Under the pieces are notes generated by a model. The model did not search any database, was not told the origin of the DNA, and was given only the letters and a program-made list of their open reading frames with translations. From NCBI GenBank assembly GCA_002327585.1, contig DCWL01000006.1, forward strand, positions 28,302 to 92,301: a DNA stretch of 64,000 bases, read 5' to 3'. This document shows positions 4,656 to 58,808 of the stretch, piece by piece; position 1 is the stretch's first letter, and each line of letters starts with the position of its first letter. The position numbers were made by a program, and so were the translations under genes. Source of the stretch: Candidatus Phycocordibacter aenigmaticus (GTDB taxonomy: Bacteria; Patescibacteriota; Minisyncoccia; Phycocordibacterales; UBA2163).

Positions 4656-5930
4656 TTATATTAGTATATCAGGAATAGGGAATTTCTTGGAGAGTTCTTG
4701 GACTTCGTTTATAATTTTCTGCTTTCTACTTTCATCATCTTTATTCTCAAGAGTATCAATCATCAAGTTTGTAATAATCTCACATTCTTTCTCTTTAAAT
4801 CCTCGTGTTGTGACAGCAGGAGAACCGAAGCGAATCCCAGACGGATCCTTCGCTGAACGTTTGTCGTCAGCAATAAGATTTTGATTTACAGTAAGGTCAA
4901 CACTTTCCAGTAATTCTTGCGCAACTTTGCCTGTTATACCGAGTGAGTCGTACACGTCTGCAAGAATCATATGGTTTGATGTTCCTCCTGCAATCATTCG
5001 AATATTTCTTTTCTTCAATACTTTCTCCATTACTTTAGCATTTTTAAGAACCTGTTTAGCATATTCAGCAAATGCAGGCTGAAGTGCTTCTTTAAAACAA
5101 ATTGCTTTTGCAGCAATCATATTCATATGTGGCCCGCCCTGAATGCCGGGAAATATCGCTCTGTCGATTTTCTCCGCCAATTCTTTGCTTTCATGAATTA
5201 AAATCAATCCTCCACGCGGACCGCGGAGAGATTTGTGCGTTGTTGCTGTGATTATGTCGAAGTTTGCATCAAAAGGGTTCGGGAATGCTTTACCTGCAAT
5301 AAGTCCTGCAATGTGTGCTATGTCCACCATTGTGTAAGCTTTGATCTCTTTCGCGATAGAAACAAACTTTTCATAATCAAGTTCTCTGGTATAGGCGGAA
5401 AAGCCAGCAACAATTATTTTTGGTTTATGTTCTAACGCTAGAGAGCGAAGTTCATTGTAATCAATCTCTCCCGTATCAATGTTCTTCATCTTGTAATGTA
5501 CAAATCTATAAATTTTTGAGAGAGAAAATCCAGGATGCCCGTGCGTCAAATGCCCGCCATGCGAGAGGTCCATTGCAAGAATTGTATCTCCTGGCTTAGC
5601 AAGTGCAAAATAGGCGGCAATGTTTGCTGGATCTCCAGAGAGTGCCTGTACATTTGCGTACTTGCAGCCAAAAAGCTTGGTAGCTCTTTCAATCGCAATT
5701 CTCTCAACAGAATCGGCAAATTCCTGCCCCGAATAATAACGCTTTCCTGGATATCCTTCAGAGTATTTGTTGGTAAGGACGGAACCACTTGCTTCCCTTA
5801 CAGCACGCGATACATAGTTCTCAGAGGGAATGAGATTAATAGTCTCCGTTTGCCTTTTCTCCTCGCTAAAAATTGCATCGTAAATTTCTCCATCCTCTTT
5901 TTTTATAAAATTTAAATCTACGTGTTCCAT
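4656..5930 (-). CDS. glyA: serine hydroxymethyltransferase
   Basis: LIPSENYVS..TNKYSEGYPGKRYY motifs, PLP-lysine region TTHKSLRGPRGG; start trimmed to MEHVDLNF. Confidence 0.88.
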   Translation of the reverse strand: MEHVDLNFIKKEDGEIYDAIFSEEKRQTETINLIPSENYVSRAVREASGSVLTNKYSEGYPGKRYYSGQEFADSVERIAIERATKLFGCKYANVQALSGDPANIAAYFALAKPGDTILAMDLSHGGHLTHGHPGFSLSKIYRFVHYKMKNIDTGEIDYNELRSLALEHKPKIIVAGFSAYTRELDYEKFVSIAKEIKAYTMVDIAHIAGLIAGKAFPNPFDANFDIITATTHKSLRGPRGGLILIHESKELAEKIDRAIFPGIQGGPHMNMIAAKAICFKEALQPAFAEYAKQVLKNAKVMEKVLKKRNIRMIAGGTSNHMILADVYDSLGITGKVAQELLESVDLTVNQNLIADDKRSAKDPSGIRFGSPAVTTRGFKEKECEIITNLMIDTLENKDDESRKQKIINEVQELSKKFPIPDILI

Positions 5931-17542: not shown

Positions 17543-17839
17543 TTACATCATTTCACAAGTGAAATGGTCGACTCTATCATCAACTCTACAGCATGTTAAC
17601 CCATTTGATACTGCAATTAGATCAGCTATTTGTGAACATAATTTCTTATTTTTTGTAATTGAATTACCTATAAAAAACTTATCGTCATCACTGGAAACAC
17701 AAAGAGAAATACTTAAAAAATCTGTTTGACGACAAATTAAAAAATCTGTTTGACGACAAAAACTAACTGTACCTTCTTTATGAAATACAATGCGGTCACC
17801 TGCTTTTAGAGTTGTTACCTTACCGTCTTTGGTTTTCAT
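17543..17839 (-). CDS. hypothetical Cys-rich small protein with internal 8-aa tandem duplication
   Basis: 98 aa; FCRQTDFLICRQTDFLS from a perfect 24-bp tandem repeat. Confidence 0.35.
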   Translation of the reverse strand: MKTKDGKVTTLKAGDRIVFHKEGTVSFCRQTDFLICRQTDFLSISLCVSSDDDKFFIGNSITKNKKLCSQIADLIAVSNGLTCCRVDDRVDHFTCEMM

Positions 17840-44472: not shown

Positions 44473-44500
44473 CCGCCAAAGAATTTTTTTGGCGGTTTTT
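44473..44500 (+). terminator. rho-independent terminator (plus-strand orientation)
   Basis: ccgccaaa gaa tttttttggcgg stem followed by TTTTTATTTATT. Confidence 0.6.
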
Positions 44501-45602
44501 ATTTATTCATAGGCATCACTAGATAAAAAAAGGATGCATCTCCCACTCCACTCACAATCATAGGTTTGCTCAAGCCCGCAAACTTAAGAGAAATACTGTC
44601 TGAATATATAGACTGAAAGCAGTCGGAGATATATTTGTGGTTAAAATTGATATTAAGAGACTCGCCTGAGATAGCTGAATCAACTTTGTTGGTTATCTCC
44701 CCCACATTCTCATTTTTTGAGCTTATAGTAAACGATTTTCTTTTAGGATCAATAGAAAGACTAACTTGATTAAACTGATCAGAGAAAACATTTGTGTTTT
44801 TAAGAGTATTTACAATGTCTTGTTTTAGAACAACCACTTCTGTGGTCTGTTTCTTTGGAATTATCTGCTTGTAGTCAGGAAAAGTTCCATTTATAAGTCG
44901 GGATGTTAAATAAATTTTGTCTGAGACGAAAGATATTTGATTGTTGTTTATATTTACATCAATACTACCACCAACATACTCCAAAACTCTTATAATCTCT
45001 GAAATGTTTGGGAGTGGTATTAAAATAGGTTCAAAATCCTTCACTTTATCATCAATAGAAATTGTTTTCTCAGCTAGTCTGAATGAGTCGGTTGAAACAA
45101 AGACAAATTTTCCGTCGTCGTTGTAGATATAAACACTTGATAATTCCTGTTTTATTGCAGATATTGAAGCGCTGTACCACACCGATTTTAAGCCGTTTAT
45201 TAACTCTCCCACTTTTATGTTTATTAATTTCCCCCCTTTAGCAACTGTTGGAAGTGTTGGAAAATCGTCATGTGGAACCGCTTTTATAATAGCTTTATTT
45301 GATTTTGTGGAAATGTTTAAATTACCGGATATAACTTCAAGTGTTATTTTGTCTTGATAGATGGTGGATATAAGGCTGTAGAGCACCGAGCCAGAAACTG
45401 CCACAACACCCTCTGAGACAACCTTTGAAGGGATTTCAATCTCAATACCTAAATCCAAGTTTGTAGAGCGGATATAGAACTTTCTGTTTTTTGCAAACAG
45501 GAGTAAATTATTCAAAACAGGAAGGGTTAAATTTCGACCGCTGATCTTCTCGGCGATTGATATACTGTCGGTTAAATTATCTTTTGTACATTCTATTTTC
45601 AT
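44499..45602 (-). CDS. dnaN: DNA polymerase III beta sliding clamp
   Basis: 367 aa; three-domain clamp, conserved position after dnaA. Confidence 0.85.
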   Translation of the reverse strand: MKIECTKDNLTDSISIAEKISGRNLTLPVLNNLLLFAKNRKFYIRSTNLDLGIEIEIPSKVVSEGVVAVSGSVLYSLISTIYQDKITLEVISGNLNISTKSNKAIIKAVPHDDFPTLPTVAKGGKLINIKVGELINGLKSVWYSASISAIKQELSSVYIYNDDGKFVFVSTDSFRLAEKTISIDDKVKDFEPILIPLPNISEIIRVLEYVGGSIDVNINNNQISFVSDKIYLTSRLINGTFPDYKQIIPKKQTTEVVVLKQDIVNTLKNTNVFSDQFNQVSLSIDPKRKSFTISSKNENVGEITNKVDSAISGESLNINFNHKYISDCFQSIYSDSISLKFAGLSKPMIVSGVGDASFFYLVMPMNK

Positions 45603-45802: not shown

Positions 45803-47185
45803 TTAATTCAACATTGCCCGTATCTGATCAACCTCTTTTGACAAAAGACTGTCAATTTTTAAATCCCTCTTAATTTTATCGCACGAGTGAATCACTGTGG
45901 TATGATCTCTACCTCCTAACTTCTGACCTATAGTCGGATAAGAAACATGAAAGTCTTCTCTAAGGATGTACATAATAAGCTGCCGAGGCTTAACAACTTC
46001 TTTAACTCTTGTTTTTTTATAAATAACACTTTCATCTAAGTTGTAAAAACCAGCAACTTGTTTTATAACATCCTTCACTGAAACAGATTTCCTCGACTTT
46101 ATATTATTTTTTATAAGTGCCTTAACATCATTTAATGACAAAACCTTTCCTTTTAATTGTGACTGACAGATGATTGAGTTTAGTGTTCCCTCAAGTTCCC
46201 GAATATTTCCCTGAACAGTAAGGGCAAGATAATTAACAATTTCATTTTCTATAATAAATTTATTCTGCAAAGATTTTGCCTTAAGGATTGCTATTCTTGA
46301 TTCATGGTCGGGAGAAGGAATGTCTGCTATCATACCAGCAGAAAACCTAGATTTTAAGCGGCCTTCTAGGTTTGGTATCATGTTTGGGTGAGTGTCAGAT
46401 GAGAATACAATTTGTTTATTATTATCGTATAGCGCATTAAAAAGATGGAAAAGCTCTTCACGCGTCTTCTCCATATTTGAGAGAAATTGTATATCGTCAA
46501 TAATAAGAACATCATACTTTCTATATTTCTCTTTAAAGAGTGTGTTTACTTTATTACTTCTTACTGCATTTATATAATCTTGCGCAAACTTCTCCGAAGT
46601 TGTGTAATAAACTTTTGTATCAGGGTTTCTTTTCTTTAATTGATTTCCTACTGATTGAATAAGATGAGTTTTGCCATGCCCTGTTCCTCCATAGATAAAA
46701 AGTGGATTATAGGTAATCCCCGGTTTCTCGACAATAGCTTGCGCCGCGACGTGAGCAAGCTCGTTAAATGGCCCGACTACAAAACTCTCAAATGTATATC
46801 TTGGGTTTAAATTATCTTCCTTGTTTGGGTAATAATCATTTAAAGGAAGTTCTTTATTTATACTCATACTCTGCCTTCGCCCTATTTCGAGCTCTTTTTT
46901 ACCCTCTTTTTTAATTAAATATTCAATACCTCGAATATTACCCACAAAACTTCTTAAAATCTTCAATATAAGCTTATGGTATTTGTTGAAAAGCCAGTCT
47001 TTTACGAATTCATTCTGCACACTCAAACACACAACACCTCCTTCTATTTTTATAATATGTGTATCTTTAAACCAAGTACTAAAATTTGCTTTTGAAATGT
47101 TTAGTTCGATATCAACAAGCGCATTTTCCCACAGTTCTTTAACGTTAACTTCTTCAATTACATTGTCGTTTATAGTCTCGTTCAT
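45803..47185 (-). CDS. dnaA: chromosomal replication initiator DnaA
   Basis: 460 aa; AAA+ Walker A GGTGHGKTHL, C-terminal DNA-binding domain. Confidence 0.92.
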   Translation of the reverse strand: MNETINDNVIEEVNVKELWENALVDIELNISKANFSTWFKDTHIIKIEGGVVCLSVQNEFVKDWLFNKYHKLILKILRSFVGNIRGIEYLIKKEGKKELEIGRRQSMSINKELPLNDYYPNKEDNLNPRYTFESFVVGPFNELAHVAAQAIVEKPGITYNPLFIYGGTGHGKTHLIQSVGNQLKKRNPDTKVYYTTSEKFAQDYINAVRSNKVNTLFKEKYRKYDVLIIDDIQFLSNMEKTREELFHLFNALYDNNKQIVFSSDTHPNMIPNLEGRLKSRFSAGMIADIPSPDHESRIAILKAKSLQNKFIIENEIVNYLALTVQGNIRELEGTLNSIICQSQLKGKVLSLNDVKALIKNNIKSRKSVSVKDVIKQVAGFYNLDESVIYKKTRVKEVVKPRQLIMYILREDFHVSYPTIGQKLGGRDHTTVIHSCDKIKRDLKIDSLLSKEVDQIRAMLN

Positions 47186-47258: not shown

Positions 47259-47290
47259 ATGTTAATAAAATGTTAATAAGATGTTAATAA
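47259..47290 (+). repeat. three direct ATGTTAATAA repeats at 11-bp spacing
   Basis: seen directly: copies at 47259, 47270, 47281, abutting rpmH start. Confidence 0.6.
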
Positions 47291-53272: not shown

Positions 53273-53581
53273 TTATTTTGCAAGGATCTTTTTCTCATAC
53301 TCTGGGAAATATGTGGATATTTGTTTTAAGTTGAATTTCTTAAGTATTGCTTCTTTTGGTTCTTTATCAAGAAGAAATTCAAATGACTTTCGGACTAGTT
53401 CACTGGGTTTGACCTCGCGGCTAGTAAGTTTCTCCCAATATTCCCTATCAACCGTCACTTCGTAGCACATACCTTCAATCTCTACACTAAATACCCATTT
53501 CTCTTCAGATTCACTTTTTATTTCTACATTTGTCATACCTCTAATTCTCTCATAGGTGTGGATAAATGGGAAATTTGACAA
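53273..53581 (-). CDS. hypothetical protein
   Basis: 102 aa. Confidence 0.45.
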   Translation of the reverse strand: MSNFPFIHTYERIRGMTNVEIKSESEEKWVFSVEIEGMCYEVTVDREYWEKLTSREVKPSELVRKSFEFLLDKEPKEAILKKFNLKQISTYFPEYEKKILAK

Positions 53582-53682: not shown

Positions 53683-54204
53683 ATGACTTCACGAACAGAT
53701 AAAAAAAAGATTTTAACTGTCGGTTTTTCCGACAATGAAAAGCAAATATTAGACGCTTCCAATGCCGGTAGGTTTGATATTACTCACGAGAGTAATACAA
53801 AAGACGGCCTGGAGAGCATCTCAAACGCGACCGTGTTTGATGCTTTATTTGTAAAGGACGGAGCATGGCCTGCCATAGAAGGCAGAAGTGCTATAGATGG
53901 TAGAGATCTGCTTAAACAAATGTCAGAGATACCTAAACTTCTTACAATAGCTATCGAAGACAGTATGTTTATAGGTATTGCCCATCCGGAATGTGGCAAA
54001 AAACCTGTTGTTCAAAACCTGAAAGATCTAGAAAGTATCAGGAATGTGGAGAGGATTACCGCATTAGATATTAGTACAAACAAAGATTTAAAAGCTTTAT
54101 TTAGTACGGTGGTTGAGAATATTATCAATGAAGAGTCATTAGTAAAAGAAGATTCGGCCGGGAAAACAGAAGATGTAAAAAACGCAGCATTTCTGACTTC
54201 CTAA
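53683..54204 (+). CDS. hypothetical protein
   Basis: 173 aa. Confidence 0.45.
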   Translation: MTSRTDKKKILTVGFSDNEKQILDASNAGRFDITHESNTKDGLESISNATVFDALFVKDGAWPAIEGRSAIDGRDLLKQMSEIPKLLTIAIEDSMFIGIAHPECGKKPVVQNLKDLESIRNVERITALDISTNKDLKALFSTVVENIINEESLVKEDSAGKTEDVKNAAFLTS

Positions 54205-54325: not shown

Positions 54326-54396
54326 CGGGGTGTAGCATAGTGGTAGTGTACTCGGTTTGGGACCGAGCGGTCCGGGTTCGATTCCCGGCTCCCCGA
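54326..54396 (+). tRNA. tRNA-Pro (TGG)
   Basis: anticodon loop TTTGGGA; C1:G72 and A73 as expected for bacterial tRNA-Pro. Confidence 0.75.
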
Positions 54397-54402
54397 ATTT
54401 TC

Positions 54403-54416
54403 TAAAGGACATTTAT
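54403..54416 (+). repeat. TAAAGGACATTTAT motif, copy 1
   Basis: exact 14-mer also at 57036..57049; partial copy 57023..57035. Confidence 0.7.
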
Positions 54417-54996
54417 ATAACTATATCTTCTAAAAATCCCACTCTCACCTTTTTATTCTTTATATCAAGATAAATTATAATCACATCAAACCACCACTAT
54501 ATGCCATCACCTGCCTTTTCAAGTAAGTATGTCCGTATAGTTCTTAATAATAGCTTTAATTTCTATTAATGTGCTTTATCTTCCGGTCTACAGCTATCTG
54601 TTTCATGAATAACATTATCTAATTTTCCACATAACATAGTTTTTACTTCAATAAAGTGTAAAAGCTTATCTTTTTAGTAATTATACCAATTTCTCCCTAT
54701 TTTTTTCAATAATTTCATTCAATAATCTTAAACCTTTGTTTCACGAGAAACCTATATGCTATATTTTCATTAATTTCTCTAATTTACTGCTTTTTTTATT
54801 TCAATTCCTATTGATATATGTTATTTATGAAACATAATATAATAAAGTTTCATGTGAAACTATTTTAAGTGTTATGAACAGGATGTATTACTTAACCTTT
54901 GAGTAACAAATATCCTTATTTTAAGTCATATTTTTAGAAAAGGACGTTATAATTAACTATTTATTAAAAATGTCTTTTATACACATATTCACAGTT

Positions 54997-55005
54997 TTAT
55001 CCACA
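54997..55005 (+). promoter_or_regulatory. perfect DnaA box TTATCCACA
   Basis: seen directly inside 690-bp AT-rich ORF desert. Confidence 0.5.
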
Positions 55006-55092
55006 ATTTTACATGAAAATATCCTTATTTTTCGTAATTTTTAAAAAATCTTAAAGACAAAACTACAAAAATTATTAACGTTATTGATAGTG

Positions 55093-55163
55093 TGCGGATA
55101 GAGGGAATTGAACCCTCGTCTCATCCTTGGCAAGGACGTATTCTACCACTAAACTATACCCGC
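55093..55163 (-). tRNA. tRNA-Gly (GCC)
   Basis: anticodon loop TTGCCAA, acceptor GCGGGTA. Confidence 0.8.
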
Positions 55164-55166
55164 ATA

Positions 55167-55238
55167 CGCGCCCGCCAGGACTCGAACCCAGAACGGCTGG
55201 TCCGAAGCCAGCTGTGATATCCATTTCACCACGAGCGC
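55167..55238 (-). tRNA. tRNA-Arg (TCG)
   Basis: anticodon stem GCTGG/CCAGC, loop CTTCGGA. Confidence 0.75.
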
Positions 55239-55302
55239 AATAAAGATATTATACAATTTTATTGGCATAAATACAAAACATGAAGTAGAATAAATATAAA
55301 TA

Positions 55303-56778
55303 ATGAACAAGATTAAATTAAACATTCCAAAAGAGGTTTCACAGGTAACAAAATCGCTAGAAAACGCAGGTTTTGAGTCATATATTGTGGGAGGATGTGT
55401 GAGAGACCTCTTGAGAGGCAAAATTCCAAAAGATTGGGATATTACAACAAATGCGACACCCGAGAGAATAAAAAAACTATTTGACAACACATTTTACAAT
55501 AATGATTACGGAACAGTAGGTGTTGTGAATGAGGGTACAGAGGATGAAACTCTTAAAGTGATTGAAGTAACACCATATCGTCTTGAATCAGAATATTCAG
55601 ACGCCAGAAGACCAGATTCTGTGGAATTCAGCCATTCTTTAGAACATGACCTGCATAGGCGTGACTTTACAATAAATGCGATCGCATACAGTCTTTCTAA
55701 AGAACATATCGTTGATCTTTATAAAGGACAAGGAGATATAGAGAAGGGAATTGTGCGCGCAGTTGGAGATCCAGATATAAGATTTAATGAAGATGCTTTG
55801 AGAATATTACGTGCTATAAGGATTTCAGCGGAGTTAGGTTTTAAAATAGAGGAGAAAACTAAAAAAGCAATTAAAAATGATGCTAGAATGATAGTTAAAA
55901 TTGCCAAAGAGCGAATTAGAGATGAGTTTATAAGGATTATTATGTCAGATAAGCCTATGGAAGGCCTTGAATTAGCCCATGAATTGGGGGTTTTAAGCTT
56001 TATAATACCTGAACTTGAAGAAGGGTTTGACGTGAAACAAAATCAGGCTCATTCCTACACAGTTTGGGAGCATTCTCTTAGATCAGTTCAGCATTCATCT
56101 GAAAAGGGATGGCCTCTTGAGATACGTTTGGCGGCTTTGTTTCATGATATAGGAAAACCAGCAACAAGTAGGTGGTCTGACGAAAAGCAGGATTGGACGT
56201 TTCATGGGCATGATGTTGTCGGCGGCAGGATGACTAAGAAAATACTGACTGATTTGAAGTTTCCCAACAAACAAGTGGATAAAATAACAAAATTGGTCCG
56301 CTGGCACTTGTTTTTCTCTGATACTGAGAAAATAACACTCTCTGCCGTCCGCAGGATGATACGAAACGTGGGGGAAGATAATATATGGGATCTAATGGAT
56401 TTGCGTGTCAGCGACAGAATAGGAACAGGAAGGCCAAAAGCTCATCCATATCGCCTACGCAAATATAAATCTATGGTTGAGGAGGCACTACGAGACCCAA
56501 TATCTGTAATGATGCTTAAAATTAATGGCAGAAGAGTTATGGAAATTACAGAAGAGAAACCGGGACCTAAAATAGGATATATTCTACACGCTCTTTTGGA
56601 GGAAGTTTTGGATAATCCGAAGCTCAATACTGCCGAATATTTAGAGGAAAAGACTAGAAAACTTATTAAATTAAGTGAGAGTGAGCTCAAAAAAATTGGA
56701 GAAAAAGGAAAATTAAAAAAAGGCGAAATAGAAGGAAAAGAAGTTGAAAAAGTAAGAGATAGGCATTATGTGAAATAA
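55303..56778 (+). CDS. cca: CCA-adding tRNA nucleotidyltransferase with HD domain
   Basis: 491 aa; GGCVRDLLRG pol-beta head, HD motif region FHDIGK. Confidence 0.8.
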   Translation: MNKIKLNIPKEVSQVTKSLENAGFESYIVGGCVRDLLRGKIPKDWDITTNATPERIKKLFDNTFYNNDYGTVGVVNEGTEDETLKVIEVTPYRLESEYSDARRPDSVEFSHSLEHDLHRRDFTINAIAYSLSKEHIVDLYKGQGDIEKGIVRAVGDPDIRFNEDALRILRAIRISAELGFKIEEKTKKAIKNDARMIVKIAKERIRDEFIRIIMSDKPMEGLELAHELGVLSFIIPELEEGFDVKQNQAHSYTVWEHSLRSVQHSSEKGWPLEIRLAALFHDIGKPATSRWSDEKQDWTFHGHDVVGGRMTKKILTDLKFPNKQVDKITKLVRWHLFFSDTEKITLSAVRRMIRNVGEDNIWDLMDLRVSDRIGTGRPKAHPYRLRKYKSMVEEALRDPISVMMLKINGRRVMEITEEKPGPKIGYILHALLEEVLDNPKLNTAEYLEEKTRKLIKLSESELKKIGEKGKLKKGEIEGKEVEKVRDRHYVK

Positions 56779-57035
56779 AAAAATCCACCATAGAGCTTAA
56801 AGTGGAGTTATGTAAGCATAATAGTGGATTTCTAGGAGAAACCGAGAGAGATGAGAGAAGGCCGTAAAATGAGTTTGATATAAGTTATATGCGTGTATTA
56901 AATATCTCTTTATACAAAAATTTAATAAGATTGCAGATAAAAATACTTAACAGTCATACCACTAAATTCAAACTACCTGATTGTGTAAAGAACCACTAAT
57001 CCACTTATTATAATACTTCCTATAAAGGACATTTG

Positions 57036-57057
57036 TAAAGGACATTTATGTGGATAA
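57036..57057 (+). repeat. TAAAGGACATTTAT copy 2 overlapping perfect DnaA box TGTGGATAA
   Basis: seen directly; DnaA box 57049..57057. Confidence 0.7.
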
Positions 57058-57095
57058 CTTTTCAACAAGCTTAGAGTAAGTTTTAAAAATATCTT

Positions 57096-57863
57096 TTAAG
57101 ATAATTCAATACCAACTGGCGCATGGTCGGAACCAAATATATCGCTTAAAATAAAAGCCTTTTTAAGATTATTCTGTAAATTTGAACTTATGAAAAAATA
57201 ATCCAACCTCCAGCCGATATTGCGGTCGCGGGCTCTTGTCTTAATATCCCAATAGCTATATGAATCTTTTTTATCAGGATTTAGATGCCGGAATGTGTCA
57301 ATATAGCCGTGGCGGATTACTTCATCAATCCATGCTCTCTCTTCGGGAAGAAAACCTGTGCTTTCTTTATTTTCCCTCGGGCGGGCAAGATCAATTTCCT
57401 CATGAGCTGTGTTTATATCTCCACAGAAAATTATTTTTTTTTCGCCCTTTTTTAATTTTTCAATATAATTAAGAAATGCATCATAAAAATCAAGTTTGTA
57501 TTTTAATCTCTCTGGCCCCATGCCGCCGTTGGGGAAGTAAACATTTAAAAGTATAAAGTTTTTGAAATATAAAGTTAATAAACGTCCTTCTTGGTCAAAT
57601 CTCTTTATCCCCATGCCATACTCAACCTTTTTCGGCTTGGTCTTGGTGTAGACGGCTACTCCGCTGTATCCTTTTTTAATTTCTGCTGAGGCGAAAAATG
57701 AGAAATGGCCTCGTATCTCGCGCAGTTGCTCAGGAAGTTGCTGAGGTTGAGCTTTTGTCTCCTGAATGCAGAAAATATCGGCATTTTGTGTAAAAAAATC
57801 ATTCCAAGAGTCTTTTTTATGAATGGCTCGCAGACCATTTACATTCCAAGATAGTATTTTCAT
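57096..57863 (-). CDS. xthA: exodeoxyribonuclease III
   Basis: 255 aa; MKILSWNVNGLRA, EEP-fold motifs. Confidence 0.88.
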   Translation of the reverse strand: MKILSWNVNGLRAIHKKDSWNDFFTQNADIFCIQETKAQPQQLPEQLREIRGHFSFFASAEIKKGYSGVAVYTKTKPKKVEYGMGIKRFDQEGRLLTLYFKNFILLNVYFPNGGMGPERLKYKLDFYDAFLNYIEKLKKGEKKIIFCGDINTAHEEIDLARPRENKESTGFLPEERAWIDEVIRHGYIDTFRHLNPDKKDSYSYWDIKTRARDRNIGWRLDYFFISSNLQNNLKKAFILSDIFGSDHAPVGIELS

Positions 57864-57881
57864 GTATTTATATTAATATTT

Positions 57882-58808
57882 TTATTTCCTTTTCTTTCCA
57901 TGAAACGTTTTATGTATTTCACGGAGATGTTTATCTGTGACATGCGTGTAGACTTGTGTTGTCGCAATGTTTGCATGCCCTAAAAGCGCCTGCACCGAGC
58001 GTAAGTCAGCACCACTTTCTAGAAGATCGGTTGCAAAGGAATGGCGCACTACATGAGGAGTCACTTTTTTAGAAATACCAGCTTTCACTGCATAGAATTT
58101 TACAATCCGCTCAACAGAACGCGGTGTAAGGCGAAGTGAATCCGCGCGTGAAGCATTTTTGCCGAATTGAATAAACAATGCTTCATCCATATCTTCTCTT
58201 TTGTCTAGATAGTTTCTTACAGCCTTTTTTGCAGAGTTTGAAAGAAAGACAACGCGGATTTTATCTCCCTTACCGCGCACAGAAAGCTCATCTTTTGAAA
58301 GGTCAATGTCATTGTTTAAAGCGCAAAGCTCTGATACGCGCAAGCCTGTGGAGAATAAGAGCTCTAATATCGCTTTGTCGCGGAGACTTTTAACATCTGT
58401 TTCATCTGGTGATGAAAGAAGTCTCCCAAGATCGTCTGAAGATATAAGGTCTAGGCTACGCTCGGAAGTTTTTGCAAGCTCAATGCGCTCAGGGGAGAGA
58501 GAATCTATCTCACGTTTGCGTAGAAATTTAAGAAATGCGCGAAGAGCTATTAAATAATAGTTTTGAGTTTTTTTCTTAAGAGTATCTTTCACCCCTTCTG
58601 TTGTTGCACCACTTTCTTGCCTATTGAGCCATAGGCGGAACTTACGGACGTTCTCATCGGTAATATCTCCCACTTTCTTTATTTTCGTGAAATCAATAAA
58701 ACGAGAAAGATATCGGTCATAGTTTTGTACAGTTTTCAGACTCCTACCTTTCTCAATCTCTAAGTATTCAAGAAACTCTTGTTTTAATTTCTCAATATTT
58801 TGCGACAT
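57882..58808 (-). CDS. tyrosine recombinase XerC/XerD-like
   Basis: 308 aa; R..HxxR..Y catalytic region HVVRHSFAT...LLGHANIATTQVYTHV. Confidence 0.85.
   Translation of the reverse strand: MSQNIEKLKQEFLEYLEIEKGRSLKTVQNYDRYLSRFIDFTKIKKVGDITDENVRKFRLWLNRQESGATTEGVKDTLKKKTQNYYLIALRAFLKFLRKREIDSLSPERIELAKTSERSLDLISSDDLGRLLSSPDETDVKSLRDKAILELLFSTGLRVSELCALNNDIDLSKDELSVRGKGDKIRVVFLSNSAKKAVRNYLDKREDMDEALFIQFGKNASRADSLRLTPRSVERIVKFYAVKAGISKKVTPHVVRHSFATDLLESGADLRSVQALLGHANIATTQVYTHVTDKHLREIHKTFHGKKRK

Follow-up and report, generated by a model that had tools for sequence, protein, structure and literature searches.

A conserved motif accompanying DnaA boxes at the predicted promoter of a candidate small RNA and at a separate site cluster in Parcubacteria

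We analysed a stretch of 64,000 nucleotides (hereafter the window) of a 182-kb contig from Candidatus Phycocordibacter aenigmaticus, which is abundant in Tara Oceans samples, and found that three 14-mers within it are, on comparison with other genomes, copies of a conserved 9-12-bp cis-element that accompanies DnaA boxes in the origin-proximal region of Paceibacteria/Parcubacteria. Two of the copies form a tandem pair, which together with a DnaA box supplies the core and upstream portion of a conserved predicted sigma-70-type promoter on the minus strand, and this predicted promoter faces a candidate small RNA that is structured, untranslated, terminator-ended and outside Rfam. Judged from relatives, the 3' end of yraN has a conserved site cluster of its own, and the copy at 54403 is part of it. 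It is probable that these copies are half-sites for a putative protein acting alongside DnaA, with the predicted promoter, candidate small RNA and site clusters as described here.

The initial annotation had pointed to an exact 14-bp direct repeat, and its coordinates were reproduced: TAAAGGACATTTAT occurs exactly at 54403-54416 and at 57036-57049 in the window, both on the plus strand. The near-copy that had been reported is also present, but its coordinates were one off, as ATAAAGGACATTTG occupies 57022-57035 and had been placed at 57023..57035; the 14-mer at 57023-57036 (plus strand) is TAAAGGACATTTGT, with 1 mismatch to the repeat. The distance from the repeat to tRNA-Pro, given as 7 nt, is in reality 5-6 nt, with the tRNA 3' end at 54397 (ARAGORN) or 54396 (Rfam). 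The gene calls were confirmed, with tRNA-Gly, tRNA-Arg and cca (55303-56778) between the repeats and an xthA-like gene (Exo_endo_phos, 57096-57863, minus strand) and a Xer-type recombinase (57882-58808, minus strand) outside them, as was the overlap of the last copy with a DnaA box, since TGTGGATAA (57049-57057) is a perfect minus-strand box that shares the last T of the repeat. In Markov-1 simulations, 2.7 +/- 2.1 exact direct 14-mer pairs less than 3 kb apart are expected per 64 kb, and the window holds about 8 repeat events of this type. An exact 14-mer pair is unremarkable in this AT-rich window, so that the comparison with relatives decides the case. When up to two mismatches were allowed, the 14-mer had 6 matches in the window versus 1.64 expected (0/100 shuffles reach 6), five of the six falling within 54.4-57.1 kb. 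Apart from the motif sites, the window has exact TAAAGGACA only once, inside the coding sequence of cca, where it encodes the conserved YKGQ; this match was rejected as a functional site, being a coding coincidence. Sites with 1 mismatch to the motif show no enrichment elsewhere in the 64 kb.

The motif has the consensus A-TGTCCTTTA-[C/T]A, which reads TAAAGGACAT on the plus strand, and the composite of motif core and DnaA box, TAAAGGACAT-N2-3-TGTGGATAA, was found in at least 119 metagenome contigs. A rough hand estimate, as opposed to a computed value, puts the chance expectation of the composite at a handful. One motif copy and the DnaA box were preset in the search pattern, and conservation was therefore counted only over the positions and copies that it left free. 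Homologues of cca and of xthA were each detected in 91 of the ~110 tblastn-positive loci, mostly flanking the composite, which also lies in the cca-xthA spacer of three genomes with a cca only 52-59% identical, one of them a 59%-GC Kaiserbacteria MAG. The spacing of 2-3 nt between motif and box recurs in L001, L002 and L003 as well as in metagenome loci. Each locus carries 3-7 copies of the motif in both orientations, with 3-4 within +/-120 bp of the box versus a background of ~0.03 per 100 bp, and inverted copies beyond the DnaA box are common. There are only three perfect DnaA boxes in the 64 kb, at 57049-57057 (minus strand), 54997-55005 and 53557-53565 (minus strand). The first of these, TTATCCACA on the minus strand, is 3 nt upstream of the motif copy overlapping the -35, and a degenerate inverted copy, TATCTTTTA (57090..57098, plus strand), overlaps the xthA stop codon at a position where the relative L137 has a perfect TGTCCTTTA. 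Allowing at most 1-2 mismatches to TTATNCACA, the TGTGGATAA adjoining the motif classes as a DnaA box and TAAAGGACA does not, differing from TTATCCACA at positions 2, 4, 5 and 6. A scan of a viral collection gave one distinct, chance-like match resembling an RBS plus ATG, and a phage or mobile origin of the composite was rejected; in the literature, the motif string was found in primers only.

On the minus strand, the cca-xthA spacer presents in order the DnaA box, ATGTCCTTTACA containing the -35 hexamer TTTACA, the second motif copy and a -10 of the form TAnnnT. The predicted sigma-70-type promoter (57010..57039, minus strand) consists of TTTACA at 57039..57034, an 18-nt spacer and TATTAT at 57015..57010, with 10/12 matches in a promoter scan. 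Its -35 is formed by the 3' part of motif copy 1 as read on the minus strand (ATAAATGTCCTTTA; 57036..57049) and the next two bases, while copy 2 (57023..57036) follows in tandem with a period of 13 and occupies an operator-like position between the -35 and the -10. TTTACA is kept in 89 of 107 loci, the completing CA not being fixed by the search pattern, and TAnnnT stands 16-18 bp from the -35 in 92.5% of the 107 loci versus 4.9% at random positions, so at the level of sequence the hexamers of a sigma-70-type promoter are retained, 16-18 bp apart, in orthologous loci. In 66 loci the second motif copy between the -35 and the -10 has direct orientation, at +11 to +13, and in 25-26 of ~105 loci it is inverted. 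In ~20 loci the predicted promoter and the spacer that it would transcribe are flipped together, as a single unit, with respect to cca and xthA. Beyond this predicted promoter, no promoter region in the 64-kb window bears the motif. That the tandem pair and the DnaA box are the core of a predicted small-RNA promoter goes beyond what the initial annotation could see.

The transcript predicted from this promoter is an unannotated, untranslated RNA of ~225 nt (56777..57003, minus strand; 5' end taken from the promoter), which consists of a boxA-like element, a long core hairpin, a CU-rich single-stranded stretch and a terminator hairpin. The boxA-like GGUUCUUUACACAA is in the leader (56984..56971, minus strand), and the terminator hairpin, with the loop CAUAACUCCACUU, spans 56833..56784 (minus strand); the U-tail behind it (56783..56777) shares bases with the cca stop codon. 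The candidate small RNA folds with z = -4.28, its terminator hairpin is found in 66/104 loci and its stems show compensatory changes in relatives when read within sub-clusters. The boxA-like motif (consensus GTTCTTTnAAAA) is in the sense orientation in 78/104 loci and antisense in 7/104, placing a predicted GCUCUUUAACAA-like boxA on the transcribed strand of an untranslated-RNA leader. A small protein encoded in the cca-xthA spacer was rejected, as there is no conserved ORF and none exceeds 36 aa. Scans with the Rfam 15 families returned tRNAs only, both at the gathering score and at E <= 5-10, for the window and in 35 locus scans (20 at the gathering score and 15 at the E-value threshold, overlapping), and 6S, SRP, RNase P, tmRNA and the rest of Rfam gave no matches to the candidate small RNA. 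Family-wide MAFFT alignments were non-structural, and RNAalifold returned nothing. A 16S gene or rRNA operon with which to compare an rrn-leader boxA is absent from the window and the compared loci.

Motif copy 3 (54403..54416, plus strand) lies between the 3' end of tRNA-Pro and the stop codon of a decayed yraN (UPF0102) pseudogene (approximately 54412..54790, minus strand). L131 and L137 have the same copy, the equivalent place in L130, L133/L140 and L139 is taken by an inverted degenerate one, and L138 has six motif copies at the yraN 3' end; copies downstream of tRNA-Pro also occur in L077, L093 and L107. The pseudogene, detected by tblastn with the YraN of L001 (E = 2.5e-9) and interrupted by frame-shifts and stops, accounts for most of a 675-bp 'non-coding' stretch, and yraN is intact in L130, L131, L133 and L137-L141. 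Between the yraN 5' end and a DnaA-box array that we call element 2 is a palindrome, AGTTTCATGTGAAACT (54846..54861), which we take to be parS-like from the parS consensus, and relatives have TGTTTCACGTGAAACA or near variants in its place; an earlier parS-like candidate at ~54735 was discarded, as it is inside the coding remnant of the yraN pseudogene.

Element 2 (54938..55005, plus strand) comprises AAAAGGACG (54938-54946), TGTCTTTTA in inverted orientation (54971-54979) fused to TTATACACA (54977-54985), the box-like ATATTCACA (54985-54993) and a perfect DnaA box (54997-55005), so that degenerate motif copies flank a conserved three-box array at 54971-55005. Its consensus, TGTCCTTTATcCACaTaTcCaCaGa.TTATCCACAGtTtt, derives from 18 loci chosen by a two-box pattern, and the architecture is visible in ~30 loci, including close relatives. 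In L118, element 1 (in the cca-xthA spacer) and element 2 have one three-box sequence in common. Element 2, with 3 or 4 tandem boxes, has the clustering and helical phasing of an oriC-type array. The spacer between dnaA and rpmH holds a second conserved DnaA-box array, and the cumulative GC-skew minimum and a switch in gene strand are near 47 kb (dnaA-rpmH), 7.7 kb from element 2. In the GC-rich L001, local AT-rich dips adjoin elements 1 and 2.

The initial annotation had offered, as one reading of the repeats, binding sites for a DnaA-associated or other regulator, and the presence of the motif beside DnaA boxes in more than 100 contigs argues for it. The half-sites would be bound by a putative sequence-specific DNA-binding protein, which most likely competes or cooperates with DnaA, because the half-sites overlap the -35 and the spacer and sandwich or overlap DnaA boxes. 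By analogy with Spo0A, CtrA, MtrA and HP1021, such a protein could gate both the transcription of the small RNA and the occupancy by DnaA of the origin-proximal box clusters, and the boxA-like leader may recruit NusB/NusE, which would shield the untranslated transcript from Rho. No regulator candidate was evident among the window ORFs or the conserved neighbours. A Pfam sweep of 47 further window ORFs gave top families without a regulator, and the conserved neighbours orf173, orf102, orf354 and orf146 had no family matches. A homologue search with orf173 returned near-identical sequences only; its orthologues resemble a CheY/flavodoxin-type alpha/beta domain with an acidic tail and without a DNA-binding domain, and a single-sequence AlphaFold model (pLDDT 32) was unusable. 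A small HTH_3 gene near the site cluster of L138 was rejected as the binder, as it is not conserved.

This empty search is one point in favour of DnaA itself recognising TGTCCTTTA as a second, non-canonical class of box, in which case elements 1 and 2 would be pure DnaA-oligomerisation regions with no second factor. DnaA could be the binder since the motif keeps positions 1, 3, 7, 8 and 9 of the DnaA box (T1, A3, A7, C8 and A9 of TTATCCACA); like DnaA boxes, it is 9 bp long, occurs in either orientation with flexible spacing, and is always beside or fused to canonical boxes. However, four of its nine positions are transversions at invariant bases of TTATNCACA, the canonical box beside it is conserved without change, no TGTCCTTTA copies occur in the dnaA-rpmH array of these genomes (TGTTAATAA/TGTGAATAA x3), and low-affinity DnaA sites are not normally so strictly conserved, which makes this reading unlikely. 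We give still less weight to an action of the motif at the RNA level, either as a boxA-like NusB/NusE site or as hairpin arms formed where transcription of the co-directional gene upstream reads through past its end (this gene being xthA, or cca where the locus is inverted). GUCCUUUACA is one base from the GUUCUUUACA of the leader, L140/L141 have the exact motif where boxA sits, and inverted copies flanking the DnaA box could pair; but either strand can carry the motif, and its copies upstream of the promoter, in element 2 and by the 3' end of yraN have no transcript orientation in common, whereas the boxA-like element is strictly strand-specific (78 vs 7) and has the flank TTTnAAAA versus TTTA[C/T]A.

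It is very improbable that the motif is only an extended -35 or UP-like element of one strong promoter, with the other copies incidental: although the -35 hexamer is inside the best-conserved copy, further conserved copies, none of them with a -10 partner, are found in the spacer, in element 2, by the 3' end of yraN and, inverted, past the DnaA box, and other promoter regions of the 64-kb window lack the motif. Least credible of all, to the point of being nearly negligible, is that the 14-mers are the attL/attR of an element integrated beside tRNA-Pro, as the initial annotation had also considered, or a plain chance repeat. The direct repeats, a tRNA 3' end and a tyrosine recombinase close by would fit integration, and with ~2.7 exact pairs within 3 kb expected per window the pair alone is not significant. 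However, tRNA-Gly/tRNA-Arg-cca-(spacer)-xthA is contiguous in every relative examined (cca 52-84% and DnaA 79-85% identical). These relatives keep the block together with the motif and provide no empty site: the enclosed 2.6 kb is missing from none of them, so the suggested direct junction of tRNA-Pro with xthA/xerC was not found, and the same contiguous arrangement without repeats, which would have spoken against a meaning of the repeats, did not turn up either, since the motif is present too. The enclosed tRNA-Gly, tRNA-Arg and cca are housekeeping genes in conserved synteny, the recombinase, outside the repeats, is a Xer-type gene whose synteny is conserved phylum-wide (xerC homologues in the same gene order in 65 loci), the repeat begins 5-6 nt past the end of tRNA-Pro and is not tRNA-derived, and where tRNA-Pro is inverted, in L130 and L139, the site has kept its place by the 3' end of yraN. 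Hence, an integrated element with att sites was ruled out on synteny, and a chance repeat was ruled out because genomes with a cca as little as 52% identical carry this motif at corresponding positions.

Returning to half-sites for a putative protein beside DnaA, a more far-reaching proposal, which we make only tentatively, is that they belong to an undescribed two-component origin module of Parcubacteria. This would combine a putative origin-binding factor, with TGTCCTTTA sites on either side of DnaA boxes in a pair of homologous elements flanking tRNA-Gly/Arg-cca (which could be a bipartite oriC), and a small RNA that is gated by DnaA, antiterminated by Nus factors, the first of a new family and equipped with exposed CU-rich anti-Shine-Dalgarno-like loops; if true, replication initiation would be coupled to translation or RNA metabolism. 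To our knowledge, no replication origin or cell-cycle regulator of the Candidate Phyla Radiation has been characterised, and our literature search found nothing specific on its oriC. A phylum-wide motif tied to DnaA boxes could serve as bait for its binding protein (TGTCCTTTATAAAGGACA or tandem copies), and three candidate origin elements are open to ranking by metagenome coverage skew. The candidate small RNA, conserved and with a strong predicted promoter, is missed by current annotation and Rfam.

The locus shares with tRNA-linked islands the direct repeats, one of them by a tRNA 3' end, and the nearby tyrosine recombinase, which illustrates how a short direct repeat in such company can look like the edge of an island without being one; unlike such islands, it has no presence/absence polymorphism, the repeat is outside the tRNA, the recombinase is outside the repeats and the cargo is housekeeping. 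Leaders with boxA for Nus-factor antitermination are described for rRNA operons and CRISPR arrays (PMC7665894). As in these, a strand-specific G[U/C]UCUUUnAAAA is in the first 60-200 nt of a predicted untranslated transcript, often with a hairpin before it, but the predicted transcript here is only ~115-400 nt long and its leader element is boxA-like in sequence.

Regulators that bind origins at sites overlapping or flanking DnaA boxes include Spo0A at the 0A-boxes of Bacillus subtilis oriC, CtrA at Caulobacter Cori, MtrA in Mycobacterium and HP1021 in Helicobacter pylori. The motif resembles their sites in being short, specific and distinct from the DnaA box, in being interleaved with or overlapping origin-proximal DnaA boxes, and in occurring in multiple copies and both orientations. 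In contrast to these systems, TGTCCTTTA matches none of their sites, the search gave neither a response regulator nor another candidate protein, one of the clusters doubles as the operator region of the predicted small-RNA promoter, and the hosts are uncultivated Parcubacteria. The architecture of oriC is treated in PMC4285127 and PMC5043019. The autoregulation of dnaA is a case of a DnaA-box-containing promoter. Another reported example is the gidA promoter at oriCII of Pseudomonas aeruginosa (PMC13438810). As in the dnaA and gidA promoters, a perfect box is here directly upstream of the -35, a position that would allow activation or repression by DnaA; unlike in those cases, the predicted product is an untranslated candidate small RNA, and copies of a second motif stand on both sides of the box.

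The exact 14-mer TAAAGGACATTTAT lies at 54403-54416 and 57036-57049, as the initial annotation had read it. The near-copy reported next to the second of these is also present, with one mismatch (TAAAGGACATTTGT) and at 57023-57036, one base off the coordinates first claimed, in tandem with the exact copy at a period of 13. A DnaA box on the minus strand (TTATCCACA, 57049-57057) shares the last base of the repeat and is one of only three perfect DnaA boxes in the window (53557, minus; 54997, plus; 57049, minus), all within 3.5 kb. An exact direct pair of 14-mers within 3 kb is unremarkable in the window (Markov-1 simulations yield 2.7 ± 2.1 of them per 64 kb), and the case therefore depends on comparative evidence. 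When up to two mismatches are allowed, the window holds six matches to the 14-mer against 1.64 expected, a number reached in 0 of 100 shuffles. Naive motif counts are inflated by TAAAGGACA, at 55722-55730 and at the corresponding position of ~68 loci, which is a coding coincidence inside cca, where it encodes the conserved peptide YKGQ. The census of 14-mer repeats also returned a 24-bp unit (TTAAAAAATCTGTTTGACGACAAA) in exact tandem duplication at 17713-17760. The third perfect box (53557-53565, minus) is at the 5′ end of a small conserved ORF with no assigned function (53273-53536/53581, minus), in the divergent promoter region that this ORF has in common with orf173 (53683-54204, plus). orf173 keeps its position beside tRNA-Pro but changes very quickly in sequence. 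It has no Pfam or NCBIfam match, and its pattern is like that of an alpha/beta domain of the CheY/flavodoxin type with an acidic tail.

We found the tandem pair with its DnaA box (element 1, 57023-57057) in the cca-xthA spacer of three genomes whose cca is just 52-59% identical, one being a 59%-GC Kaiserbacteria MAG; the example in the distant relative L001 reads CTAAAGGACATTGTAAAGGACATGATGTGGATAAG. An exact-pattern scan for TAAAGGACAT-N2-3-TGTGGATAA matched at least 119 metagenome contigs, among which we roughly estimate a handful by chance; a few of the matches listed are indeed unrelated (e.g., L045, L050, L059, L102). This pattern catches only part of the family, as the closer relative L137 has TAAAGGACAcgTAAAGGACAcctcTGTGGATAA. 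Among the matches listed, cca and xthA homologues each occur in 91 of the ~110 loci with tblastn matches, mostly flanking the composite, and the wider gene order is kept (clpP-rny-HU-htrA ... cca-(spacer)-xthA-xerC-rpsO-NYN-pnp). In the window, which belongs to a marine Paceibacteria (Parcubacteria, CPR) MAG, dnaN (44499-45602, minus) and dnaA (45803-47185, minus) are followed beyond dnaA by rpmH and rnpA, clpP, rny, HU, htrA and mscS. The genes past the cca-xthA spacer are, in order, the xthA-like one (Exo_endo_phos), a Xer-type recombinase, rpsO, one with an NYN domain, and pnp. A scan of a viral collection for the composite gave one distinct match, which looks like an RBS plus start codon, and no description of the motif or of the RNA family was found in the literature searched.

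In minus-strand orientation, the conserved block reads TTATCCACA - N2-3 - ATGTCCTTTACA - ~17 nt - TAnnnT, so the motif pair and DnaA box are a conserved predicted promoter. This was scored in 107 non-identical loci among the matches listed, on bases not set by the search pattern. The two bases that the search left free complete the -35 hexamer TTTACA in 89 of the 107; TAnnnT follows at 16-18 bp in 92.5% (random positions of these loci: 4.9%), and 60% match TATAAT at five or more of its six bases (random positions: 2.2%). The window promoter (minus) has TTTACA at 57039..57034, an 18-nt spacer and TATTAT at 57015..57010. Around the DnaA box, a stretch of ±120 bp holds 3-4 copies of the motif per locus. 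Among them is a second copy between the promoter hexamers, which 66 loci have in direct orientation at +11 to +13 and 25 loci have inverted at +17 to +19 (all among the matches listed). The far side of the box usually has one or two inverted copies, often as the perfect palindrome TGTCCTTTATAAAGGACA, so that motif copies enclose the box from both sides. The far-side copy in the window is degenerate (TATCTTTTA, 57090-57098), and L137 has a perfect copy at the same position.

From its sequence, element 1 is the conserved DnaA-box promoter/operator of an unannotated, boxA-led predicted small RNA. The spacer 3′ of the promoter extends for ~115-600 bp up to the next, convergent gene, and promoter and spacer are inverted as a single unit relative to cca and xthA in ~20 loci (among the matches listed), which argues for a self-contained gene. 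The longest ORF in the window spacer is at most 36 aa, and the predicted 227-nt transcript (57003->56777, minus) has a fold z of -4.28, with 0 of 200 shuffles equally stable. The boxA-like leader (G[T/C]TCTTTnAAAA in the first 250 nt), for which the boxA consensus of E. coli and that of Bacillus served as comparison, occurs in sense in 78/104 loci versus 7/104 in antisense, and 66/104 end in a long hairpin terminator followed by a U-tail (both among the matches listed). The window has GGUUCUUUACACAA at 56984..56971 (minus) and the hairpin at 56833..56784 (minus), whose U-tail overlaps the cca stop codon. The spacers diverge fast, forming many small blastn clusters, and P1 varies in a compensatory manner across sub-clusters (GGUAC/GUACC, AAUAC/GUAUU, AGUGC/GCACU, GGCAC/GUGCC). 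P1 encloses a hairpin for which the sub-clusters show at least 14 different stems, all perfectly complementary, and after the hairpin comes A(A/U)AUUGGA. Within the lineage of the window, covariation is seen in the terminator stems, with the loop ACUCCAC retained; CUCC is over-represented in hairpin interiors (24/66 versus 6/66 for GGAG). The version in L138 and L142 is minimal, ~115 nt with boxA, a single hairpin and a terminator whose loop is UCUCCCA. No Rfam 15 family matched the window, nor any locus in 35 scans (20 at gathering score and 15 at E <= 5, overlapping). BoxA-mediated antitermination is documented for untranslated non-rRNA transcripts (PMC7665894). In L140/L141 (~5725-5745), the exact motif TGTCCTTTA stands where other loci have the boxA-like GTTCTTT, which blurs the boundary between the two. 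L137 also has a long perfect inverted repeat (~150 bp, 4803-4950), a hairpin or MITE-like insertion that separates the stop codon of cca from the terminator of the small RNA and is absent from the window.

The copy at 54403 does lie 3′ of tRNA-Pro, at a gap of 5-6 nt and not the 7 nt first given (tRNA-Pro ends at 54396/54397). On its other side is the stop codon of yraN (UPF0102), here a decayed pseudogene (54412-54790, minus; tblastn E = 2.5e-9, with stops and frame-shifts), which makes up most of the 675-bp "non-coding" stretch 3′ of tRNA-Pro; yraN is intact in all close relatives compared. The closest relatives, L131 (DnaA 85% identical) and L137 (cca 84% identical), share TAAAGGACATTTTATATAAC at this position with the window, beside an intact yraN. 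An inverted degenerate copy is found at the yraN 3′ end in L130, L133/L140 and L139, irrespective of tRNA-Pro orientation, L138 has six copies there within 120 bp, and L077, L093 and L107 also have copies 3′ of tRNA-Pro. The site is absent in the more distant L001 and L003. Being kept in close relatives and missing from distant ones, the 54403 copy is thus a lineage-conserved third site cluster and not an att site derived from the tRNA. The initial annotation had weighed an integrated element against regulator sites near DnaA boxes: the former was mistaken, and the latter was right in kind, as conserved motif copies accompany the boxes.

Element 2 is a conserved block between the yraN 5′ end and the tRNA-Gly 3′ end. 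Its consensus in 18 loci chosen by a two-box pattern is TGTCCT|TTATCCACA-TATCCCCAG-AG-TTATCCACA-GTTTT, with the motif fused to the first DnaA box, and the architecture is visible in ~30 loci. The window has it at 54971-55005 and, at 54938, one more degenerate motif copy (AAAAGGACG). Just upstream, relatives have a perfect TGTTTCACGTGAAACA, which we take to be canonical parS, and the window has a variant palindrome (AGTTTCATGTGAAACT, 54846-54861). In L118, elements 1 and 2 have the same, nearly identical three-box sequence (TGTCCGTTATCCACTTATACCCATGA[C/G]TTATCCACA), ~30 bp past the element 1 DnaA box on its far side and again ~3.66 kb away in element 2; the two are therefore homologous modules, and the near-identity suggests duplication or gene conversion between them. 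An exact 15-bp direct repeat (AAATATCCTTATTTT, 54908-54922 and 55017-55031, 109 bp apart) brackets the array on both sides, has similar sequences in L061 and L133, and could be a repeat belonging to an AT-rich unwinding element.

The cumulative GC skew reaches its minimum near 47 kb, where the genes also switch strand. Close to this point, at the classical oriC position, the 108-bp dnaA-rpmH spacer holds a conserved tandem array of DnaA-box variants, three copies of TGTTAATAA at a period of 11 (47260-47290), directly upstream of rpmH and dnaA. Its minus strand, TTATTAACA, is one mismatch from TTATNCACA, and relatives have TGTTAATAA/TGTTAACAA/TGTGAATAA. A 1-mismatch search for TTATCCACA did not pick up this array, and the spacer array has no copies of TGTCCTTTA. 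Elements 2 and 1 are 7.7 and 9.9 kb from the ~47 kb skew minimum and array, and all three are origin-proximal DnaA-box clusters.

Sequence comparison establishes how conserved the motif is, how many copies there are and where they lie with respect to DnaA boxes and promoter hexamers, as well as the promoter-leader-terminator anatomy; several explanations could be considered for these features. It is rather unlikely that DnaA itself binds the motif. A role at the RNA level, boxA-like or as a hairpin, would fit a motif that is one base from the leader boxA and its exact occurrence at the boxA position in L140/L141; we consider it improbable all the same. We give still less credence to the motif being only a promoter element, and besides the promoter/operator the same motif is in two further origin-proximal clusters. 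Finally, att sites or chance would be a most implausible source of the copies.

Instead, we favour a sequence-specific protein that would bind the motif half-sites. The flexible site layout (direct at 11-13 bp, inverted, palindromic) and the overlap of sites with the -35, the spacer and DnaA boxes fit a protein that would act as monomers or as a flexible oligomer. No binding protein was identified among the window ORFs and conserved neighbours searched. The proposed protein would either compete or cooperate with DnaA, in the manner of Spo0A, CtrA, MtrA and HP1021 at other origins.
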